From assembly GCA_964561155.1 (NCBI GenBank), contig CAZLOI010000003.1:16832-80831 (forward strand): a stretch of 64,000 bases of DNA. Direction: 5' to 3'. The notes below the pieces were generated by a model. The model was not told the origin of the DNA. It saw only the letters and a program-made list of their open reading frames with translations, and ran no database searches. Positions 18,614 through 29,653 of the stretch are shown here, piece by piece. Within the stretch, counting starts at the first letter, position 1; each line of letters begins with the position of its first letter. The stretch is from an uncultured Candidatus Saccharibacteria bacterium. GTDB taxonomy: Bacteria > Patescibacteriota > Dojkabacteria > J137. Position numbers and translations under genes: made by a program.

Positions 18614-19984
18614 ATGAGAAAAAGCCTTGAGTTAATTACAATTATTGCCCTAATAATATCAACAGTCTTGGTAGGTATTGTATCGCTACAAAGTAGCTTT
18701 AGAGTTTCAGGAACAGAAAGGAATGATGATACAAACGTTATTAGCATCTACTTTAATAAACCAATTCCAAGAGACCTTGATCTTACAAAGTATATAAGCT
18801 CCATTCCTTCTAGCAATCTATCGTTTAACAACGTTGGAAACAGAATTGAGATATTACTGAGTAACCTAAGTTTAGGTGAAACATACAACGTTAAGGTAGA
18901 TAGAAGTCTTCCAAATCTATTCAATGAAACGCTTAATCAAGATACGATTGTAGAATTTAGTACAAAGAATCCAAAGTTTGCATACCTTAGAAACAAAGAT
19001 GGCTCCTTTGCAATACATACGTACGATCTAAAGACACAGGAAGATGTGCTTCAATACGCTACTTCTAATGAAATTAGAAGCTATTCGATTACAAGAAAAT
19101 ATCTACTTGTTGCAGAACTACAAACACTAACAGATATCAAAGTATCTTTAATAGATATAGCTACAAAAGATGTTGTAGAAGAAATAAATTTAAGTCAAAG
19201 CAACTTGTTTAAAGTAGAACTATCAGACAACAATGATTTTTTCATATATATCAGTCAGGATGCAAAGTCAGAAAGCGGTTTTGTAATACCTTTGGGATCA
19301 AGTAAGTTAACGCGTGTAGAAATTGATACTCTCGAAACAATTAACTTTAGCTACAATGAATTTACCAATGATATTCTCGATGCGTATATTACACCAGACA
19401 ACGAGGCTATGCTTCTACGAGGATTTGATTCAACATTCTATATAAAATCATTCCTAACAGATGACGAACCAATTACATTAGCGAAGTTTATAGGGACAGG
19501 TGGCTTTAATAGCAAAGGAAGCCAAATAATCTTTACAGCATTCGATCCAACGCTTGCATTCTCATCATTCCCATATATATCAATATACAACTCAGATCGA
19601 TCAACTGAGGATATAAAGATAGAAGGTTCATACGTAATAGATTCAGTGTTTGGTGGAGATTCTTCGATATACTACGCGAAGAAAGTAAAGGAACTTTTAG
19701 GAACACCAGGTTTCTTTGGAATATATAACTACAAAGACAATGCAGAGAAAGTAGTTATTCAAGATGACAACCTAGATACAAGCTTTGAATTACCTATACT
19801 CAGTCAAGACGACAACTATCTTTGCTACGAATCATATAGCGAAGCTGCAATGATGGATAACAGTAATCAAAGAAGTTTTATTAATCAAAGAAAACCTAAA
19901 AATGCATCTGTAAATATTTTCGAATTTCAAAGAAAAGGAAATGTAATTGAAATCCCGAATTCATATGACTGTAGGTGGATCTAG
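18614..19984 (+). CDS. Hypothetical N-terminally anchored beta-rich extracytoplasmic protein (456 aa)
   Basis: ATG 3 nt after the upstream stop; one N-terminal TM then a long Ser/Thr/Asn-rich beta-type sequence. Confidence 0.45.
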   Translation: MRKSLELITIIALIISTVLVGIVSLQSSFRVSGTERNDDTNVISIYFNKPIPRDLDLTKYISSIPSSNLSFNNVGNRIEILLSNLSLGETYNVKVDRSLPNLFNETLNQDTIVEFSTKNPKFAYLRNKDGSFAIHTYDLKTQEDVLQYATSNEIRSYSITRKYLLVAELQTLTDIKVSLIDIATKDVVEEINLSQSNLFKVELSDNNDFFIYISQDAKSESGFVIPLGSSKLTRVEIDTLETINFSYNEFTNDILDAYITPDNEAMLLRGFDSTFYIKSFLTDDEPITLAKFIGTGGFNSKGSQIIFTAFDPTLAFSSFPYISIYNSDRSTEDIKIEGSYVIDSVFGGDSSIYYAKKVKELLGTPGFFGIYNYKDNAEKVVIQDDNLDTSFELPILSQDDNYLCYESYSEAAMMDNSNQRSFINQRKPKNASVNIFEFQRKGNVIEIPNSYDCRWI

Positions 19985-20019: not shown

Positions 20020-20055
20020 CTTGACACCGATCTTTGGAAATGTTTCAATATACTC
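20020..20055 (+). promoter_or_regulatory. Conserved upstream element (copy A) containing TTGACA, about 65 nt upstream of surface-protein paralog 1
   Basis: CTTGACACCGATCTTTGGAAATGTTTCAATATACTC; near-identical element at 22479. Confidence 0.35.
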
Positions 20056-20121: not shown

Positions 20122-21234
20122 ATGACAACCAATTCACGATCTCTAGTCTCAGCACTAACAATATTATTCGTTCTAGCATCACCTCTACTTGGATTTTCAG
20201 AAGTATCTGCAGCTGCGTTAACAAACATGGCAATTGCTGGTACTGGTATTACAGCATCATCTTCTGCAGTAAGTGCAGCAATTACACCAACTATTTCATT
20301 TCAACTTCAAACAGCAGTAGCATCAACTGATACTATAAGAATACTATTCACAGGTAACGGCTCAAATAACGGAGTCACTGTATCTGGTGCAGGACTTGCA
20401 TCAGCAGATATAACAGTTTCAGGGGCATGCTCGGGAACAGTCACACTTGCTGGTACTCCAATAGCTACATCAACCGATAACCCAACATTGTCATTAACAG
20501 GCATTACAGGAACAACAGGTAGTGTTTGCAATGTAATAATTGCTGCATCTGAGCTATCTACAGACTCTGCTGCTGGAAATGTTTCTGTAGCAGTTGCAAC
20601 AAGCGTTGGAGACTTTGGAGCATTCATGTACTACATTGGAGATGCAAACGATGTTTCTGTAACAGCAATTGTTCCACCAACACTTTCATTCGTATTAAGA
20701 AATGCAGCAGATACTGCTGATTTATCACCTGGAGCTACTACTGGAAACAGAGTATGCAGCCTTGGAATCTTACAACTAGCAACAACTCCTGTACCTAGTA
20801 CTGGTGTTAATGGTTGCCAATACCGAATAAGAATTGCTACAAACGCTACTTCTGGATACGCAGTTAACTATCTATCAGATTCTGCAGATACCTCCGGCGG
20901 AGGCTTCGAAAGACTTGCTAAGAGTACAACTGTAAATATCCCAAATGTTTCAAATGATCCATTAACATCTAACAATGGTTATGGAGCTAGACTAACTCAA
21001 GTTTCAGCTGGACACACTAGAGGCGCTACTTTCACAGGTACTGCTGCTAACTATTTCCCAATAACCGCTAGTACTTCTACCGCAATGTATTCAAGTTCAG
21101 GACCACTAGCTCCTGGTGCTGCTCCAGATACAACTAACACCTCTCTAATTGAGCATGGTGCAAGAATAGCAGCCTCTCAAGAAGTAGGTAACTATGCTCA
21201 CGTTGTTACTTACACAGTCACAGCAACTTTCTAG
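20122..21234 (+). CDS. Secreted Thr/Ser/Ala/Gly-rich surface protein, paralog 1 of 3
   Basis: Signal peptide ...GFSEVSAA/ALT; conserved blocks DSAAGNVS, YYIGDANDVSVTAIVPPTLSFV, NRVCSLGILQLATTP, C-terminus EVGNYAHVVTYTVTATF. Confidence 0.6.
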   Translation: MTTNSRSLVSALTILFVLASPLLGFSEVSAAALTNMAIAGTGITASSSAVSAAITPTISFQLQTAVASTDTIRILFTGNGSNNGVTVSGAGLASADITVSGACSGTVTLAGTPIATSTDNPTLSLTGITGTTGSVCNVIIAASELSTDSAAGNVSVAVATSVGDFGAFMYYIGDANDVSVTAIVPPTLSFVLRNAADTADLSPGATTGNRVCSLGILQLATTPVPSTGVNGCQYRIRIATNATSGYAVNYLSDSADTSGGGFERLAKSTTVNIPNVSNDPLTSNNGYGARLTQVSAGHTRGATFTGTAANYFPITASTSTAMYSSSGPLAPGAAPDTTNTSLIEHGARIAASQEVGNYAHVVTYTVTATF

Positions 21235-21343
21235 TATAAGTATCAATTGATCATCAATTTATTACTAGAAAGACTAGCAAAGTAGTAGTATTAAAATAGA
21301 AAAAGAGTAAACTAAAATTGATATAAAACAACTTATAAAAAAC

Positions 21344-22468
21344 ATGAAAAACTATCAAGGAAAGGCAATTAATACATTAGTAATAGCATTCACATTGCTT
21401 AGTCCATTTACTGGATTCTTTAATGTATCTGCTGCTGCCCTAACTGCAATGAGTATATCTGGAACTGGTATTACAACTAACTCGTCTGCTGTAAGTGCTG
21501 CAATTACTCCAACATTCAACTTCACATTGGCAACAGCTGTTGGACCAACAGAAACAATTCAGATTACTTTCGTTGGTAACGGATCAAATAATGGAATAAC
21601 AGTTTCAGATGTTACAGGTCTTGCCTCAGCAGATATAACAGCAGGCGGAGTATGTTCTGGTTCAGTTACACTAGCTGGATCACCAATAGCTCAAAATACA
21701 GATAATCCAACTCTTTCTATAACTGGAGTTACTTGTACTACAGGTGCTGCAACATTAGCTATAGCAGCTTCCCAAGTATCTACAGATAGTGCTGCTGGTA
21801 ATGTTTCAATAGCAATTCTTGTAACAAGTGCCACTGGTGACTACGGTACATTTCTTTACTACATTGGAGATTCAAACGATGTTTCTGTAACAGCTATTGT
21901 TCCTCCAACTCTATCTTTTGTTATTCGAAATGGTGCAGATACATCTGATCTTTCACCAGGTGCAACAACAGGAAACAGAGTATGTAGTTTGGGTATCTTA
22001 CAATTAGCAACAACACCAACCCCATCCTCAGGTATAAACGGTTGTCAGTATAGATTTAGAATTGCTACTAACGCTACCTCAGGTTACGCTGTTTCATATC
22101 TCTCAAACTCTGCAGATACTGGTGGAGGTGCTTACGATAGACTTGCAAAGAATACAACTGTAAGTATTGCTAATGTCGCTGGTGGAGGAGATCCCTTATC
22201 TTCAAACGCAGGTTACGGAGTAAGATTGACTCAAGTTTCAGCAGGTCATGCAAGAGGTGCAACATTTACAGGTACAGCATCAAACTACTTCATAATTACA
22301 GCTAACACTGCAACTGCAATGTATAATAGTACTGGACCATTGGCTCCAGCTACTGCACCAGACACTACAAATACTTCTCTTATTGAACACGGTACTAGAA
22401 TAACCGCAGCTCAAGAAGTAGGTAACTATTCACACATAGTGACCTATACGGTAACAGCAACCTTCTAA
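21344..22468 (+). CDS. Secreted Thr/Ser/Ala/Gly-rich surface protein, paralog 2 of 3
   Basis: Same architecture and conserved blocks as paralog 1; C-terminus EVGNYSHIVTYTVTATF. Confidence 0.6.
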   Translation: MKNYQGKAINTLVIAFTLLSPFTGFFNVSAAALTAMSISGTGITTNSSAVSAAITPTFNFTLATAVGPTETIQITFVGNGSNNGITVSDVTGLASADITAGGVCSGSVTLAGSPIAQNTDNPTLSITGVTCTTGAATLAIAASQVSTDSAAGNVSIAILVTSATGDYGTFLYYIGDSNDVSVTAIVPPTLSFVIRNGADTSDLSPGATTGNRVCSLGILQLATTPTPSSGINGCQYRFRIATNATSGYAVSYLSNSADTGGGAYDRLAKNTTVSIANVAGGGDPLSSNAGYGVRLTQVSAGHARGATFTGTASNYFIITANTATAMYNSTGPLAPATAPDTTNTSLIEHGTRITAAQEVGNYSHIVTYTVTATF

Positions 22469-22478
22469 ATTCATGCTA

Positions 22479-22514
22479 CTTGACACCGACATTTAGAAAT
22501 GATTGAATGTTAAG
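22479..22514 (+). promoter_or_regulatory. Conserved upstream element (copy B), about 57 nt upstream of paralog 3
   Basis: CTTGACACCGACATTTAGAAATGATTGAATGTTAAG. Confidence 0.35.
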
Positions 22515-22570
22515 TAAGCCGATTTGGAAAATACTATTTACCTATTCCGAAATCTGATACACTAAAATAT

Positions 22571-23671
22571 ATGAAAAAATCAGTTGCACTCTTTACTATA
22601 GTTACGCTCTTCTTAACTCCATTTGCAGGATTCTTTAATGTCTCTGCTGCTGGAATTACATCAATGAGTATCACAGGAACTAATATTACATCTAACTCAT
22701 CTGCAGTCAGTACTGCAATTACACCTACTATAAACTTTACCTTAGCAACAGCTGTTGGACCAACTGAACCAATTCAACTTACATTTGCAGGTAACGGATC
22801 AAACAATGGAATTACAGTCTCAGATGCTGCAGGTCTTGCTTCAGCAGATATTACAGCTGGTGGTGTATGTTCAGGAACAGTCACACTAGCAGGTACTCCA
22901 ATTGCACAAAATACAGATAACCCAACACTTTCACTGACTGGAATAACATGTACAACAGGAGCAGCTACAATAACAATTGCAGTTTCAAATGTTTCAACAG
23001 ATTCTGCAGCTGGAAACCTTTCTGTAGGAATTACTACTGGATCTGGAGACTTCGGATCATTTCTCTACTACATTGGAGATGCTAACGATGTTTCAGTTAC
23101 AGCAATCGTTCCACCTACACTATCATTCGTTTTAAGAAACTCAGCAGATACAGCAGATCTAACACCAGGTACAACTGCAGGTGTTAGAGTTTGTAGTCTT
23201 GGTATCTTACAATTAGCTACAACTCCTGACCCAGGTACTGGTGTTAACGGTTGTATGTATAGATTAAGAATCGCAACAAACGCTACTTCTGGCTATGCAG
23301 TAAGCTATCTATCTGACTCTGCAGACACTCAAGCTGGTGGTTTTGAAAGACTTGCTAAAGATACAGATACAAATATCCCAAATGTTTCTAATGACCCACT
23401 AACAGCAACTAATGGTTATGGTGCTAGATTAACTCAAGTCTCAGCTGGACACACTAGAGGTGCTACCTTCACTGGTACTGCAGCTAACTATTTCCCAATA
23501 ACTGCTAGTACTGCTACAGCAATGTACAATAGCTCAGGTCCATTAGCTCCTGGAAACCCTCCAGACACTACAAATACATCACTTGTAGAACACGGAGCAA
23601 GGATTTCTGCGTCGCAGGAAGTAGGTAACTATGCTCATGTTGTTACATATACTGTAACTGCTACATTCTAA
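22571..23671 (+). CDS. Secreted Thr/Ser/Ala/Gly-rich surface protein, paralog 3 of 3 (mosaic of 2 and 1)
   Basis: N-terminal half matches paralog 2 (FNFTLATAVGPTE, ITAGGVCSG, PIAQNTDNPTLS, TCTTGAAT); C-terminal half matches paralog 1 (GGFERLAK, NIPNVSNDPLT, GYGARLTQVSAGHTRGATFTGTAANYFPITAST). Confidence 0.6.
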   Translation: MKKSVALFTIVTLFLTPFAGFFNVSAAGITSMSITGTNITSNSSAVSTAITPTINFTLATAVGPTEPIQLTFAGNGSNNGITVSDAAGLASADITAGGVCSGTVTLAGTPIAQNTDNPTLSLTGITCTTGAATITIAVSNVSTDSAAGNLSVGITTGSGDFGSFLYYIGDANDVSVTAIVPPTLSFVLRNSADTADLTPGTTAGVRVCSLGILQLATTPDPGTGVNGCMYRLRIATNATSGYAVSYLSDSADTQAGGFERLAKDTDTNIPNVSNDPLTATNGYGARLTQVSAGHTRGATFTGTAANYFPITASTATAMYNSSGPLAPGNPPDTTNTSLVEHGARISASQEVGNYAHVVTYTVTATF

Positions 23672-23765
23672 TATGGAGAATAAATACTAATCGCCTTGCT
23701 CATTCGCAATTAATTTTGTAAACTTATGAGCACAATATACTCTCTTATTTAGAAGCAGTTAAAAT

Positions 23766-24872
23766 ATGAAGTCTTTAAATATAGGTTTGTTGGTTCTCGT
23801 ACTAACTTCAACCGTTTCCCCATTTATCCAATTAGTATCAGCTCAAGAAGGTGTTTATGGTCCAATTATCAATGCAACTACATTTGAGTATGTTGTAGAG
23901 AAAGGTTCGACTATTACCGATTCATTTGAAGTACGGCATGACTATCAGGATGCAAATTTTATTGCAACTTTCTACCCAACAGCTGTAGATTTCACTGCAG
24001 ATGGAGAAAGTGGAACACCTGTATTCCTAGACAAGACAAGATCTAAGGGTAAATCATCATTAGAAGACTGGATTACACCAATAACAAGATCTATTACAAT
24101 ATCTGAACTTGGAGATACAGCACTTGTTGAATTTGAAATTACCGTCCCAATCGATGCAGAACCTGGATCATATACAGCAGGTCTTTTGCTTTCAGACTCA
24201 GAGTTTGACCCTCAAGCAGGACCAAACCAAGTAGCATTGGAATCAAGATTAGGTCCGTTAATCTTTGTAACAGTACCTGGAAACATTCAATCAAATCTAG
24301 AAGTTCTTAGCTTTGAAGCTGTAGATATATATGGAAATGCTCCTTTCTTAGGAATTTTTGAATACCACCCTATCGATTTCAAGCTTACACTAAAGAATGG
24401 TGGTAACGTATACATGACACCAGGAGGAACAATCTCTGTTCACCAAGGTGATCTTGCAAAGTCATCTTTTGTTATTCCAAATCTAAATGAAGACAAAGGT
24501 TCTATTTTAGCTGGTACAACTAGATCATATTTGAATCAATGGAATGATTCTGCATTTAGAATGAAATCTGAAATAGATACCAGCACAGGTCAAACAAACT
24601 ATAGCTTCGATTTCCACCCTGAATCATTAAACAAGATACGAGTTGGTAGATATACAGCTACTCTGCAACTATTCTATCGAGACAAAGCTACTGGTGAGAA
24701 TATTAGAATGGATTATGATATTCATTTCTGGATTATTCCTTGGAAAGCAATCCTATTAATCATTGCCCTAATCGTAGGATACTTCTTAATCAAGAAAGCA
24801 ATTAGGAACAGAAGAAACTCTCTTAAGAAATCTAAGAACGGACAGAGAATGATTGGTCAACGTGTTGTCTAA
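23766..24872 (+). CDS. DUF916-like cell-surface protein with C-terminal TM anchor and basic tail
   Basis: Signal peptide, about 300-aa beta-rich ectodomain, TM WKAILLIIALIVGYFLI, then KKAIRNRRNSLKKSK. Confidence 0.45.
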   Translation: MKSLNIGLLVLVLTSTVSPFIQLVSAQEGVYGPIINATTFEYVVEKGSTITDSFEVRHDYQDANFIATFYPTAVDFTADGESGTPVFLDKTRSKGKSSLEDWITPITRSITISELGDTALVEFEITVPIDAEPGSYTAGLLLSDSEFDPQAGPNQVALESRLGPLIFVTVPGNIQSNLEVLSFEAVDIYGNAPFLGIFEYHPIDFKLTLKNGGNVYMTPGGTISVHQGDLAKSSFVIPNLNEDKGSILAGTTRSYLNQWNDSAFRMKSEIDTSTGQTNYSFDFHPESLNKIRVGRYTATLQLFYRDKATGENIRMDYDIHFWIIPWKAILLIIALIVGYFLIKKAIRNRRNSLKKSKNGQRMIGQRVV

Positions 24873-24929
24873 TTCTTCGTAATATTTAGATCTTGCTCTT
24901 TGTACTACTAACTATTAAACTAGGTTAGT

Positions 24930-26495
24930 ATGAAGAGCAATTTCTATAAATTTAAAATCACATTCGCAATTATTTTCGGTACCCTACTTTCTATATCCCC
25001 ATTCAATCCAGTTAGATTAACAAATCCTAAAGATACGCTTGAGGTTTGTGCTCAGGATATTGGCTGGGAGGACTTAGGAACTGGTGTAAGTTGTGTTCCA
25101 AACTATTCAAGCTGTGGTTCAGGATTTAACATACTTGAAAGTGCTCTAGGAGCTAGATATGTAAATGGAATATCTCAATCACAACTTATTTCAAGTCTAG
25201 AAGCTAGTTATGGCACTGATATCAATCGAATTTGTACAACAGAGAACTTTTCTGACATAACTATACGTTGGATGACTGGGGGTGAATACAATGCTGCTCA
25301 GACGCAGAATATACCTAGCGTTGGTGATACACTTTCTGGTAAAGCAATACCTAGATTTTGTCCTGCAGGCTGGCAGGCACAGATTGGAACACAAAGATTC
25401 AACTTTGCTACTGGATACCCTAGTGGATGTTGTCCAACAGGATTTAAATTTGTAAACGTTGCAGAGCAACAAGACCCCAGTGCTTCACAAAATGGAGTTT
25501 GTTGTCGACTTCCTACTGTTTCAGGAGTAGGTACGCCTCACAAATATGCAACATCTGAATTTGGAGGTACGCTTGAAATTGCAGGCTGTTACGACGAAAA
25601 TGAAAACTTGATCTATGCAGTAGATGATGCTGAAAGCCAATCACCTTCCAGAGACTACAGTACTCTTGCTGATGCTATAGAAGCTGCTGAAGAAGGAAAT
25701 ATTATTGTTGGAATTAAGCAGACTGCAGGAGGGTACAACCCAAGTGTTAGTTTTGCAGAATCAAGTGGAAATAGCACAACAGTAGTTAAGCCACAACTTG
25801 GATTAGGCTTTGGGTTGGCATTCCCTGGGAATATAAACACTATTGCAGAAAGCAAACTTAGTAAAGAAAGATGTAGAAATAATGTTGGTTGTTTTATCTC
25901 GTCTGCAGGCATAGTGTCACCTAGAAATATAGTTGGCAGCGATGGTGTTAATGTTTTTGATAATCCTAGTAATAGCTCACTGACTTGTGAGAGATGCTTC
26001 AGTCCTGGAGAACCAGTAGAAGTTGATACTACAACGAACCTTCTAAGTATTTGTGATCCAACAGCACCGAATGCAATTCGAGAACAACCACTATGTAACT
26101 CCTCAGTTATAGACACCATAGCTTGTCTTGGTGGATCCAATTCTACTAGTCAAAATGCTAACTCCGATGGAGTCGGTAGTACAAACTACGATCTTTGTTG
26201 TGCTTGTAGAGTACAAGGAGGCGTGTGGACTGGAATAGGTTGTACCGATACAACTCCTGCAGGCTTAATTACAGGCCTGATCCGAATCGTCTACGGAGTC
26301 ATGGGTGGTGTTGCTTTAATCATGCTAATCTATGCAGGTATTATGTACCAAACAGGAAATGAAGCTAACGTAAAGCAAGCTAGAGAGAGTATTATAAGAA
26401 CTATCACGGGATTAATCGTACTAACATTTAGTATCTTGATATTAAGGATCATTGGAATCAATGTTCTAGATATATTACCTTCTGGGAGTATTTAA
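24930..26495 (+). CDS. Cys-rich secreted protein (about 30 Cys) with C-terminal two-helix membrane hairpin resembling VirB2/TrbC pilin topology
   Basis: N-terminal signal/TM; CC, CxxC and CxC clusters (GCCPTGFKF, GVCCRLP, LCCACRV) with no CxxCH; C-terminus LIRIVYGVMGGVALIMLIYAGIMY-QTGNEANVKQARESIIR-TITGLIVLTFSILIL. Confidence 0.5.
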   Translation: MKSNFYKFKITFAIIFGTLLSISPFNPVRLTNPKDTLEVCAQDIGWEDLGTGVSCVPNYSSCGSGFNILESALGARYVNGISQSQLISSLEASYGTDINRICTTENFSDITIRWMTGGEYNAAQTQNIPSVGDTLSGKAIPRFCPAGWQAQIGTQRFNFATGYPSGCCPTGFKFVNVAEQQDPSASQNGVCCRLPTVSGVGTPHKYATSEFGGTLEIAGCYDENENLIYAVDDAESQSPSRDYSTLADAIEAAEEGNIIVGIKQTAGGYNPSVSFAESSGNSTTVVKPQLGLGFGLAFPGNINTIAESKLSKERCRNNVGCFISSAGIVSPRNIVGSDGVNVFDNPSNSSLTCERCFSPGEPVEVDTTTNLLSICDPTAPNAIREQPLCNSSVIDTIACLGGSNSTSQNANSDGVGSTNYDLCCACRVQGGVWTGIGCTDTTPAGLITGLIRIVYGVMGGVALIMLIYAGIMYQTGNEANVKQARESIIRTITGLIVLTFSILILRIIGINVLDILPSGSI

Positions 26496-26496
26496 T

Positions 26497-27750
26497 ATGA
26501 AAAAACTGTTCTTTGTCAGTATTCCGCTTACTGCTGTAATCGTATGGTTTATGGAAGGCTTTCTACTTAGCTACTTTCAGGATTCATCTATTCAATCAAA
26601 TCTTGCAAAGCTAACTGGATTACTAGGTATCGCCTTTATGACGACTAGCTTTGTAACATCTTCAAGACTTGATCTCATTGAGAAACTATTTGGAGGATTA
26701 GATATAGCATACAAATACCACAAACTTGCAGGCAAGATTGCATATGTATTCATATTCATGCATCCAGTGCTTCTTGTTTTAAGAAGAGCTGTGAGTGTAG
26801 ATTCCATAAAGACATTCTTCGTAGCTGGAACAACACAAAGTACAACACTTAATACTGGTATCGTTGCATTCTACGTACTATCACTTTTAATACTGTTCAC
26901 ATTGGTTCTTAAACTACCATATCAATTCTGGAAGAAGACACATAGATTCATGATTGTAGTATTCCTACTCTCTTCTTGGCATATAATCGTTGCGGGAAAC
27001 GATATATCTAAAGTATACGGAGGTATATTACTTGTAGTTGGAGTATTTGCTTTTATCTACAGAGACTACATATATGGTCACTTTGTAAAAAAAAAACTCT
27101 ATCAGGTAGTTGATATTAAAAAGCTTTCTATTTCTACTACCGAAATCTTCCTTAAACCAGTAGGAAAAAGACTTGAATTCAAACCAGGACAATTCGTATT
27201 CATGAAGTTCATGAATTCAAAAACTATTCCTAGTGAAGCTCATCCATTCTCAATGGCTTCAGACAACTCCAAGGATATAATAAGGTTTTCGATTAAGGAA
27301 CTAGGTAACTACTCAGAGATTCTAGATTCAGCAAAGCCTGGCGATATGGTCAAACTAGTAGGACCACACGGTAAGTTCACCCTAGATACATCGATCAAGA
27401 AACAACTATGGATATCAGGAGGTATAGGTACTACTCCATTTCTTTCAATGCTACACGATGCAGAAGATACAGATATTGTCTTCATTCATTCTAATAGGGA
27501 AGAATCAGATGCTGTATATATTAGAGAGATCAGTGGTCTTCTAAATTCGAATTCAAAACTAATTACACATATGTCTGATATCGAAGGATTCATAGATGCA
27601 GAATACTTTAAGAAACATGTACCAGATTACCTAGAACGAACCATATACATATGTGGACCATTTGTAATGATGCATTCCCTAAGCAAAATACTACAAGGGC
27701 TAGGAGTACCAAAGGAGAACATTAGGTTTGAGGATTTCAACTTTAAGTGA
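26497..27750 (+). CDS. NOX/ferric-reductase-like transmembrane flavocytochrome (FRD heme domain + FAD + NAD(P)H binding)
   Basis: His pairs HKLAG...FMH (H-x13-H) and HRF...SSWH (H-x12-H) in TM helices, HPFS FAD motif, GGIGTTPF NAD(P)H motif; ATG 1 nt after the upstream TAA. Confidence 0.75.
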   Translation: MKKLFFVSIPLTAVIVWFMEGFLLSYFQDSSIQSNLAKLTGLLGIAFMTTSFVTSSRLDLIEKLFGGLDIAYKYHKLAGKIAYVFIFMHPVLLVLRRAVSVDSIKTFFVAGTTQSTTLNTGIVAFYVLSLLILFTLVLKLPYQFWKKTHRFMIVVFLLSSWHIIVAGNDISKVYGGILLVVGVFAFIYRDYIYGHFVKKKLYQVVDIKKLSISTTEIFLKPVGKRLEFKPGQFVFMKFMNSKTIPSEAHPFSMASDNSKDIIRFSIKELGNYSEILDSAKPGDMVKLVGPHGKFTLDTSIKKQLWISGGIGTTPFLSMLHDAEDTDIVFIHSNREESDAVYIREISGLLNSNSKLITHMSDIEGFIDAEYFKKHVPDYLERTIYICGPFVMMHSLSKILQGLGVPKENIRFEDFNFK

Positions 27751-27751
27751 T

Positions 27752-28699
27752 CTAAACAGCAACCATTATCTGACTGATAATCATTGCGACATATACTGTT
27801 ACTAACAGTATACCCTCTGTCCTATTCAAGCTTCTTTCAGAAAGCATAAAGAATATAAAGAGAACTAATGCAAAGAATAAGAAGAATATACCAAGTAGGA
27901 GTGCTGTAGTATCGGCTATCAATACTCCGTTTGCTAGCAGCGCTAGGAGCCCTAATATACCAACATTCACACATGCACTACCAAAGAAGTTACCTAGAGC
28001 TAGTTCCTCTTCAGAGCCTTGTTTGGCGGTAAGTAGAATAGTAATCTCTGGTAAGTTGGTACCAATAGATAGAAGCACTAATCCCACAAATGTTCCAGAT
28101 ATTCCTAGAGCTTCAACAATCACTTCTAGATTGTTAACTATCTGGCTTGAAGAAAATAGTAACAAGAATATTCCAACTATCACCAAAACAATTAACCTAT
28201 ATATCGAAGTATTTTCTAGTGTTAAATAGAAAACCTGTCTTCCAAGCTTCCACATCTTCCTATTCAAGAATACCAAGTATGCAAAGTATGAAAGAATTAG
28301 TAACAAACCTTCGAATACACCTAGATATCCATCGAGAAGAGTAAAGACCATAACAAACATAGTAGCTATACCACCAAGGATCTCTAATGCAGAGAAACTA
28401 CTTTGAAACTTAATCAGCTTGTACTTAACCGCAGACAATCCAATAATTAATGCAAGAATAACCGTAGATGCTCCAACAAGGTTTCCTACAGATATTTCTG
28501 GATGATGATCACTTGAGAATACAGCAATACTAATTTCAGGGAGAGATGTAACAATACCAAGCACAACAAATCCTAAGAAGAATTCATTAATCCTAAACAT
28601 TTGTCCAAACTTCACAAAAGAATTCTCGACAAGCTTTGCTGAATAGATAAGAAGAATTAAGAAAAATCCTGAAAGAATAATATTACCTGCAATATTCAT
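27752..28699 (-). CDS. CaCA-family cation (Na+/Ca2+) antiporter
   Basis: Two alpha-repeat motifs GIVTSLPEISIAV and GTNLPEITILLTA in a 10-TM protein. Confidence 0.7.
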   Translation of the reverse strand: MNIAGNIILSGFFLILLIYSAKLVENSFVKFGQMFRINEFFLGFVVLGIVTSLPEISIAVFSSDHHPEISVGNLVGASTVILALIIGLSAVKYKLIKFQSSFSALEILGGIATMFVMVFTLLDGYLGVFEGLLLILSYFAYLVFLNRKMWKLGRQVFYLTLENTSIYRLIVLVIVGIFLLLFSSSQIVNNLEVIVEALGISGTFVGLVLLSIGTNLPEITILLTAKQGSEEELALGNFFGSACVNVGILGLLALLANGVLIADTTALLLGIFFLFFALVLFIFFMLSERSLNRTEGILLVTVYVAMIISQIMVAV

Positions 28700-28705
28700 A
28701 TATTT

Positions 28706-29653
28706 TTAGTTACTAGGTATCATTTTGTAAGATTTTGTTCTTCTTTGCAACTTCTTCTTCAAGAATCTCGATAATACATACAGAATAACAACAGATGCAG
28801 TTCCTCCAGCGACTGTATAGAAGGTTCTGTTCTGAGTTGGGATATCAATTCTAAATACTTGTGACTTTCCAGTGAACGTATCAGTTAGCTGAAGCTCCAC
28901 AACTTTGTTAGGTGAAAGAACTGTATCCAAAAAATCAAACTCATATTTAAAGCTCTCTTCAACAACCTTGTCTGGAGAAAGGTATCTTAGATTTTCATTG
29001 ATAACTTTCTGAAGATATACATTTCCTCGGTTATCTATAACCTGAACTCTAGCTAATATCTTACTTGGGAATAATCCTGAGTTCTTGTATCCAATATTGA
29101 TATCAATTATTCCATCGTATTGGCTTTCATCTGTATAATCAAAGCTATACATTTCAATTTCAGATTCGTATGATTGATTGCCAGAAACGAATAGATTAAT
29201 TCTATGCCCAATAGCAGCCTTAAGTGTTGTACCCTCCCCTAATCCAATATTTCTAAGAATAATTAGTGGAACATAGAATCCATCATTTAAATTGGCAGGA
29301 ACTATGAAGTTAAAATATATTAGCTGTTCTTCGTTAGGTAATACAATGAATTCACGAACACTTGATTGAAGAAAGCTCTCTTCATCACTTAATTCTCTAA
29401 TCTCTTCACCATATACTTCACCAAAGCTTAGTTCAAACCCGAATGCTGTATCGTAGTTATTCTTAAGAATAAAACTTCCAGTAACAGTTTCTCCTTGCTT
29501 TGCTCTTATCTCTGTTTCAAATGGATACATACTCATACCTTCAATCTCTTGAGCCTGAATTGGGTTTAGATTGGAAAACAATGATGAAGATATCAGAACA
29601 AGGATCACGAAAAGCGATCTTAGAAGTAATCCTTTAGATAGAAATCTTTGCAT
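28706..29653 (-). CDS. DUF916-like cell-surface protein with C-terminal TM anchor, distant paralog of 23766..24872
   Basis: Signal peptide, beta-rich ectodomain with colinear motifs (FETEIRAKQGETVTGSF versus FEYVVEKGSTITDSF), C-terminal TM and KKKLQRRTK tail. Confidence 0.45.
   Translation of the reverse strand: MQRFLSKGLLLRSLFVILVLISSSLFSNLNPIQAQEIEGMSMYPFETEIRAKQGETVTGSFILKNNYDTAFGFELSFGEVYGEEIRELSDEESFLQSSVREFIVLPNEEQLIYFNFIVPANLNDGFYVPLIILRNIGLGEGTTLKAAIGHRINLFVSGNQSYESEIEMYSFDYTDESQYDGIIDINIGYKNSGLFPSKILARVQVIDNRGNVYLQKVINENLRYLSPDKVVEESFKYEFDFLDTVLSPNKVVELQLTDTFTGKSQVFRIDIPTQNRTFYTVAGGTASVVILYVLSRFLKKKLQRRTKSYKMIPSN

Follow-up and report, generated by a model that had tools for sequence, protein, structure and literature searches.

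A probable Pam-type pilus locus of reduced gene content in a Dojkabacteria-related contig, with membrane-tethered chaperone-like proteins akin to DUF916/WxLIP

What would two distantly related, membrane-anchored proteins and the secreted proteins encoded beside them build at the surface of a bacterium of the candidate phyla radiation (CPR)? The question is raised by a stretch of 64,000 nucleotides, referred to here as the window (contig CAZLOI010000003.1, positions 16,832 to 80,831 of the forward strand), from an uncultured Candidatus Saccharibacteria bacterium that GTDB places in the Dojkabacteria. There, two proteins that we call anchor 1 and anchor 2 are encoded close to three tandem, closely related genes (Table 1), and a sequence-only reading had likened the ensemble to the Csc-type surface complexes of Lactobacillales. 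Our analysis leads to a different answer: with a probability of roughly 0.78, the locus encodes a Pam-type pilus, comprising three pilins and a pair of assembly chaperones tethered to the membrane. We class it as a reduced Pam variant without detectable PamR or PamT. The earlier proposal was right to see relatives of DUF916/WxLIP in the anchors, but the cargo proteins are not WxL proteins, and the reductase, antiporter and Cys-rich protein that it included are bystanders.

Pam pili are known from Candidatus Mycosynbacter amalyticus, whose filaments were solved by cryo-electron microscopy (cryo-EM; Troman et al. 2026, bioRxiv 10.64898/2026.03.03.709456). The same preprint describes pilins composed of an N-terminal domain (NTD), a linker strand plus a C-terminal domain (CTD), with stretches of PamA and PamB within one filament and paired cysteines in both; two PapD/FimC-like chaperones, PamC and PamD, which unlike the classical ones carry a C-terminal transmembrane (TM) helix; a tip pilin, PamT; and an RbmA-like membrane anchor, PamR. 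The triplicate family of the window has the same pattern of conserved regions as the Pam pilins. Its three paralogs are 72-76% identical in pairwise comparison and contain 4 Cys each, and pilin 1 ends in ...VTYTVTATF. The AlphaFold2 (AF2) model of pilin 3 (predicted local distance difference test score, pLDDT, 85.8) comprises an NTD at residues 28-168, a linker strand at 184-190 and a CTD extending to residue 366. The linker is the most conserved region of the family alignment, and three segments stand out as the most conserved: YRLRIATNATSG (a core strand of the CTD), LSFVLRNSADTA (the linker strand) and GNYAHVVTYTVT (the C-terminal strand).

On the NCBIfam model NF058581 (CPR_Pam_pilin_C; curated cut-off 55 bits), pilins 1-3 score 19.6-20.4 bits (E 4e-4 to 8e-4; 7.6e-4 for pilin 1), and 15 of the 21 members of the pilin family match it, the best at E 3.1e-10. 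A profile of the window pilins aligns by hhalign with the PamB-like pilin of a second CPR locus, L007 (probability 84.5%, E 6.9e-6), the alignment taking in a DFG motif, the VPPxLxF linker and a TNATxG[FY] motif. The triplicates are homologous to Pam pilins and, judged by their sequences, represent PamB-like donor-strand pilins. Searches of PDB sequences, whether started from individual proteins or from the pilin profile, gave nothing useful, PamA and PamB not being among the matches. Fold searches with the whole pilin returned little beyond modest matches to donor-strand fibre subunits, namely a TasA-like protein, CsuA/B, a bundling pilin of Pyrobaculum, CfaE/CfaB and CupE.

Locus L007 provides the bridge between the window anchors and the Pam system. 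Because its PamR (377.5 bits, cut-off 300) and its PamA-like (62 bits, cut-off 55) and PamB-like pilins (157 bits on NF058581) score above the NCBIfam cut-offs, we regard L007 as a genuine CPR Pam operon; a PamE-like pilin scores 30.8 bits. A distant anchor homolog, P0023, which is positive for PF06030, sits in this operon. The two remaining L007 genes that encode a signal peptide and a TM segment both belong to the anchor family, with E-values of 7.5e-69 and 8.4e-104 on the hidden Markov model (HMM) A1, the latter value belonging to P0023 and not being independent, as P0023 is itself part of the A1 alignment. In phmmer searches of the window open reading frames (ORFs), these two L007 proteins match anchor 1 at E 6.9e-22 and 6.7e-13, and so the anchors are homologous to anchors of a Pam operon. 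Since the same family fills both chaperone slots of L007, the window anchors would be PamC/PamD-type components of a Pam system.

The anchors share one layout. The sequence-only reading had placed two ORFs here, both of which exist, and had ascribed to them a signal peptide, a beta-rich ectodomain, a C-terminal TM segment and a basic tail, an arrangement that is borne out in both sequences and in the model of anchor 1. In anchor 1, the N-terminal hydrophobic signal covers residues 3-26 (...VSA/QE); a beta-rich ectodomain follows, then a TM segment at 318-348, with 9 K/R among the last 25 residues. The AF2 model (mean pLDDT 79) shows two beta-sandwich domains and a helix at 326-366. Anchor 2 is laid out in the same way, with 8 K/R among its last 25 residues; its C-terminal TM segment, read off the sequence as FYTVAGGTASVVILYVLSRFL, lies below the hydropathy threshold used. 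The two align over their full length by BLASTP at 25% identity (E 4e-4). On an HMM of 98 relatives that includes neither window sequence, anchor 2 scores 30.1 bits, whereas none of 200 shuffles exceeds 3.9. On the basis of this end-to-end alignment and the leave-out score, they are true but distant paralogs, as had been proposed.

Their placement differs from the earlier description, in which the anchors flanked the triplicate family: the triplicates in fact lie upstream of anchor 1, outside 23766-29653. A gap of 94 nt separates pilin 3 from anchor 1, which follows it on the same strand. Anchor 2 lies about 4 kb from anchor 1, on the minus strand and 6 nt upstream of a Na/Ca exchanger gene.

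How are these anchors related to DUF916/WxLIP? A word-indexed search with anchor 1 found 23 relatives, every one from metagenomes or CPR metagenome-assembled genomes (MAGs), and a word-indexed profile search gained few more. An exhaustive profile search matched 21,164 clusters (50% identity) at E<=1e-3 and 3,851 at E<=1e-30; among the best 150 of the 21,164, nearly all align over the whole profile. Neither window anchor matches PF06030 (DUF916, WxLIP_PGBD) at E<=1, and direct Pfam and NCBIfam scans of both gave no informative match. At the level of the family, PF06030 (WxLIP_PGBD, formerly DUF916) is matched by 15 of 24 members, and by 65 of 100 anchor relatives at E<=0.01. The second Pfam profile named in the sequence-only reading, PF11797 (DUF3324, WxLIP_HBD), is matched by none of the 100 relatives, while an hhalign alignment of the family to the WxLIP of E. 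gilvus runs through the second domain (probability 93.9%, E 1.6e-7, 216 columns, both domains). The WxLIP of E. faecium is aligned with a probability of 96.5% (E 8e-10) over the N-terminal domain only. For this comparison, two genuine Enterococcus WxL loci were taken from a plasmid collection. An HMM built from CPR sequences only gives 43.0 bits for the E. faecium WxLIP (shuffle maximum 9.8) and 13.9 bits for that of E. gilvus (shuffle maximum 4.2).

Structure comparison points the same way. The best PDB sequence match of the anchor family profile is EfmWxLIP1, and in a Foldseek search of the PDB with the anchor 1 model the top three matches are E. faecium WxLIP structures (9i25_C, E 5.7e-11, spanning about 300 columns, then 9i1y), so that the structure prediction suggested earlier bears out the proposed kinship. 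After WxLIP come RbmA and then the chaperone-usher chaperones CfaA, CupB2, PapD and FimC (E 2e-7 to 2e-5 for these four). Given the family-level PF06030 matches, the hhalign probabilities of 94-96.5%, the HMM scores and the WxLIP folds, the earlier DUF916/CscA assignment is correct at the level of the superfamily, though not as a direct Pfam match: the anchor family is a remote homolog of DUF916/WxLIP, with its N-terminal domain homologous at superfamily level.

The partners encoded beside the anchors are of another kind. The sequence-only reading had pointed to WxL (PF13731) for the triplicates, which proved instead to be PamB-like pilins. PF13731 has no match in any island protein or in the 21 pilin family members, hhalign comparison of the pilin family with two genuine WxL proteins gives a probability of at most 1.5%, and Pfam, hhalign and fold searches alike find no WxL domain in the pilins. 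We therefore rejected the triplicates as WxL proteins. With WxLIP/CscA proteins (DUF916 + DUF3324 + TM), the window anchors share a signal peptide, two tandem immunoglobulin (Ig)-like domains, of which the N-terminal one is homologous, a C-terminal TM helix and a basic tail. In both cases secreted partners are encoded alongside, and for WxLIP binding by strand insertion is predicted, a DUF916 strand completing the WxL beta-sandwich (Hassan et al. 2023, PMC10599100). The two differ in that the window partners are Pam pilins rather than WxL proteins, DUF3324 escapes detection by sequence, a peptidoglycan-binding WxL platform is missing, phylum and envelope are different, and the product is likely a filament rather than a wall-bound complex.

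We consider it unlikely that the anchors display the triplicates as monomers or small complexes by strand insertion, in a Csc/WxL-like assembly that forms no pilus. Such a complex would fit the anchor's best sequence and structure matches, which are WxLIP, the lack of a detected PamR or PamT in the window and pilin scores under the Pam model cut-off. It fits poorly with triplicates that lack a WxL domain by Pfam, hhalign or fold search and have the CTD and conserved linker strand of Pam pilins, and with the presence of the same anchor family inside the genuine Pam operon L007; moreover, Pam filaments have been solved by cryo-EM.

Gene order in other genomes bears on whether pilins and anchors work together. 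Scanning GTDB species representatives with the pilin alignment yielded 18 loci, all labelled CPR (Dojkabacteria, Uhrbacteria, SR1, Parcubacteria, 'Saccharibacteria' or Patescibacteria group) except two from MAGs labelled Gammaproteobacteria and 'bacterium'. In 17 of these 18 the next gene downstream of the pilin, with the same orientation, is one of the anchor family; the sole locus without a detectable anchor-family gene near the pilin is L022 (2518-3564), from the MAG labelled 'bacterium'. When neighbouring ORFs were clustered all against all, no families recurred other than those of the pilins and the anchors, each in 20 of 21 loci. The pilin-anchor pair is thus conserved. That unrelated Ig-fold envelope proteins came to lie next to each other by chance, their similarity being generic beta-sandwich noise, is a very remote prospect: Ig-like fold searches do give many generic matches of low TM-score, but the sequence scores stand well over shuffled controls, nearly all of the best 150 among the 21,164 clusters match along the whole profile, and the pairing holds in 17 of 18 loci. 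The shuffle controls and this adjacency effectively refute such an explanation.

The remaining genes of the region invite the idea that all eight form a single envelope system, for example a redox- or ion-coupled surface assembly. As the sequence-only reading stated, a Cys-rich secreted protein, a NOX-like reductase (Ferric_reduct/FAD/NAD domains) and a cation antiporter (Na_Ca_ex) are encoded between the anchors. In L011 and L013, the two closest relatives, the genes from pilin to anchor 2 stand in the same internal order and are inverted as a unit, the gap of 6 nt places anchor 2 against the antiporter gene on the same strand, and transporters have been noted near pam operons (10.64898/2026.03.03.709456). 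Set against this, the Cys-rich protein, the antiporter and anchor 2, the last at the same position, are kept only in L011 (L001 being that same contig) and L013; a reductase homolog occurs in one further locus, L012, on the other strand and about 5 kb off; and at least 15 other CPR loci have no reductase, antiporter or Cys-rich gene close to the pilin-anchor pair. Synteny upholds the association of triplicates and anchors in the earlier proposal but finds the other three genes as neighbours only in close relatives. Confined in this way, they were rejected as core components, and a single eight-gene system seems to us quite improbable.

How might such a fibre be assembled? We infer strand donation, polymerisation and an anchoring role, in the following order. 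Three tandem PamB-size pilins would be exported by Sec, and both anchors, each with two Ig domains, would be held in the cytoplasmic membrane by the C-terminal helix. The tethered anchor would insert a beta-strand into the open CTD groove of a newly secreted pilin, a step proposed because of the analogy with PapD/FimC and the predicted WxLIP-WxL complex, and would keep the subunit at the surface of the membrane. Donor-strand exchange would follow, the chaperone strand giving way to the linker strand of the pilin that comes next, and the fibre would grow without an usher or outer membrane. Neither here nor in most related loci can a homolog of PamR or PamT be detected, so that the tethered chaperone itself may hold and retain the fibre base.

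Like PapD and FimC, the anchors are two-Ig-domain proteins encoded next to pilins, with a putative donor-strand complementation logic. They differ in being membrane-tethered rather than soluble and in having neither usher nor outer membrane, PapD_N/PapD_C matches are lacking, and their structural likeness is weaker than that to WxLIP. None of the island proteins contains PapD_N/PapD_C or usher Pfam domains, and a classical chaperone-usher pilus was rejected for want of an usher; the likeness in fold to PapD, FimC and CfaA is only distant. Two anchor paralogs occur per locus in the window, L001, L004 and L007. A search for pilin-anchor (Rosetta-stone) fusions turned up double-length proteins that proved to be anchor-anchor: P0055, P0056, P0058 and P0070, from the exhaustive search, are head-to-tail fusions of two full anchor units, both of which retain a TM segment. 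Such proteins may be PamC/PamD-like pairs made covalent by nature, or gene-calling read-through. The paired anchors and natural fusions are consistent with a paired PamC/PamD-like function.

With the described Pam system the window shares pilins of two domains, in which the linker (donor) strand is conserved and the C-terminal Ig domain incomplete, and a pair of paralogous chaperone-like proteins that combine a signal peptide and two beta domains with a TM helix at the C-terminus; both systems are CPR-restricted and without an usher, and the same protein families meet in L007. The window departs from it in having three tandem PamB-size pilins and no PamA-size pilin, in its second chaperone, which lies on the opposite strand next to the antiporter, and in a lineage that has Dojkabacteria as its nearest named relatives rather than Saccharimonadia or Microgenomatia. 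It also has no detectable PamR (RbmA-like terminator/anchor with two fibronectin type III domains and a TM segment) or PamT (single-domain tip).

Several points weigh against a Pam-type pilus. phmmer with the L007 PamR finds no match in the window ORFs or the 18 GTDB loci, PamR being found only in L007 and L008 among the loci examined; and, as regards PamT, NF058579 has no match among the island proteins, the ORFs scanned with it, and the pilin HMM yields only the three full-length pilins in the window. The window pilins reach about 20 bits where the NCBIfam cut-off is 55. Their likeness to Pam pilins was established by sequence and architecture, and the identification of the anchor family with the PamC/PamD family of M. 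amalyticus rests on operon position in L007 and matching architecture. Lastly, the best structural match of the anchor is WxLIP rather than PapD, and we know of no WxLIP partner that polymerises.

The sequences upstream of the pilin genes provide a hint of their expression. Promoter-like motifs of about 30 nt precede pilins 1 and 3, not pilin 2 (Table 1), and the two copies are also alike in their flanks (CTTGACACCGA..TTT.GAAATG.TT.AAT). A consensus promoter scan that demands A at position 2 of the -10 hexamer did not pick up the motif of pilin 1. If these TTGACA-17-TT[C/G]AAT motifs act as promoters, as their sequence would imply, their distribution suggests that the pilin paralogs are transcribed separately. 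Three paralogs, at least two with a promoter-like motif of their own, could make the composition or antigenic character vary along a fibre or from one fibre to another.

Table 1. Positions in the window of the putative pilus genes, promoter-like motifs and Cys-rich neighbour
Feature	Position	Strand	Length (aa)	Remarks
Promoter-like motif upstream of pilin 1	20021..20049	+		TTGACA-17 nt-TTCAAT; read directly from the intergenic sequence
Pilin paralog 1	20122..21234	+	370	Signal peptide; beta-sandwich at the N-terminus; conserved linker strand; Ig-like domain at the C-terminus
Pilin paralog 2	21344..22468	+	374	72-75% identical to its paralogs
Promoter-like motif upstream of pilin 3	22480..22508	+		TTGACA-17 nt-TTGAAT; intergenic sequence
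Pilin paralog 3	22571..23671	+	366	The paralog modelled
Anchor 1	23766..24872	+	368	Putative membrane-tethered chaperone-like protein of the PamC/PamD family; remote DUF916/WxLIP homolog
Cys-rich secreted protein	24930-26495	+	521	21 Cys
Anchor 2	28706..29653	-	315	Divergent paralog of anchor 1, same family

The Cys-rich gene directly follows anchor 1 in close relatives only. The C-terminal ~90 residues of its product form a two-TM T4SS_pilin region (PF18895, VirB2/TrbC-like), just over the Pfam cut-off, and the homolog in L001 (11177-13450), of 757 aa, has the same C-terminus. The six-gene block from pilin to anchor 2 (window 20122-29653) lies inverted in L011 and L013 between flanks identical to those of the window, with the ArsP/DUF1980 and 456-aa genes on one side and rhodanese and Asn synthase genes on the other; at its borders a search for inverted repeats found only short matches at chance level. 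L011 and L013 have one pilin copy, against three in the window. The 456-aa protein (window 18614-19984, + strand) has an N-terminal membrane anchor and no informative Pfam match, and in relatives its gene always stands beside the ArsP/DUF1980 permease pair, not the pilus block.

Other CPR loci show further genes around the pair. In L018 (11806-15345), L024 (11745-15248) and six more loci, together one CPR subclade, the pair is followed by a gene for a protein of ~1,150 aa with a signal peptide, Fn3 domains, hydrophobic stretches towards the C-terminus that are probably TM segments, and CarboxypepD_reg domains at the C-terminal end; this protein could be a functional analogue of PamR that anchors the fibre base. 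In the Nealsonbacteria-like L004 (12281-19579), three tandem genes with Wzy_C (O-antigen ligase-like) and TPR domains start about 1.3 kb past the second anchor, after a 307-aa gene, which hints at pilin glycosylation. At Ser356 of PamA, extra density consistent with a post-translational modification was reported (10.64898/2026.03.03.709456). An SR1 MAG (L025, 12630-15769) encodes two more pilin-family proteins of ~510-530 aa, the size of PamA, downstream of the pair; given these two additional genes, the pilin repertoire differs widely in size among CPR lineages.

For CPR bacteria, which live as obligate epibionts, surface fibres are probably the means of attachment to the host. A Pam-type reading gives a likely function to five 'hypothetical' genes, and the pilin family it concerns is found in several CPR lineages (under Dojkabacteria, Uhrbacteria, SR1 and Parcubacteria labels), usually as a minimal pair of pilin and chaperone without PamR or PamT. 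The homology between the chaperones and DUF916/WxLIP joins two literatures that do not cite each other. The Pam preprint (10.64898/2026.03.03.709456) makes no mention of WxL or DUF916, the WxLIP paper (PMC10599100) none of chaperones or PapD, and the literature searched yielded no paper that ties Pam chaperones to WxLIP. What our comparisons of profiles and folds add to both source papers is the proposal that PamC/PamD-type chaperones and Firmicute WxLIP belong to one superfamily.

A wider view is possible, although we would lean against it at present: PamC/PamD-type anchors and Firmicute WxLIP may form a vast superfamily (the 21,164 clusters matched by the profile) of membrane-tethered, strand-donating chaperones that serve single-membrane envelopes, in which the pilin-anchor module of 17 of 18 CPR loci is a self-sufficient, usher-free pilus machine whose chaperone anchors the fibre base, and Csc/WxL complexes are a non-polymerising relative. 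In enterococci, listeriae and lactobacilli, WxL/Csc surface complexes have been connected with virulence and adhesion. The homology of the chaperones with WxLIP suggests a testable chaperone-like mechanism for these complexes and, if the superfamily view is true, would mean that WxLIP is to be seen as a chaperone and not as a host-binding protein.

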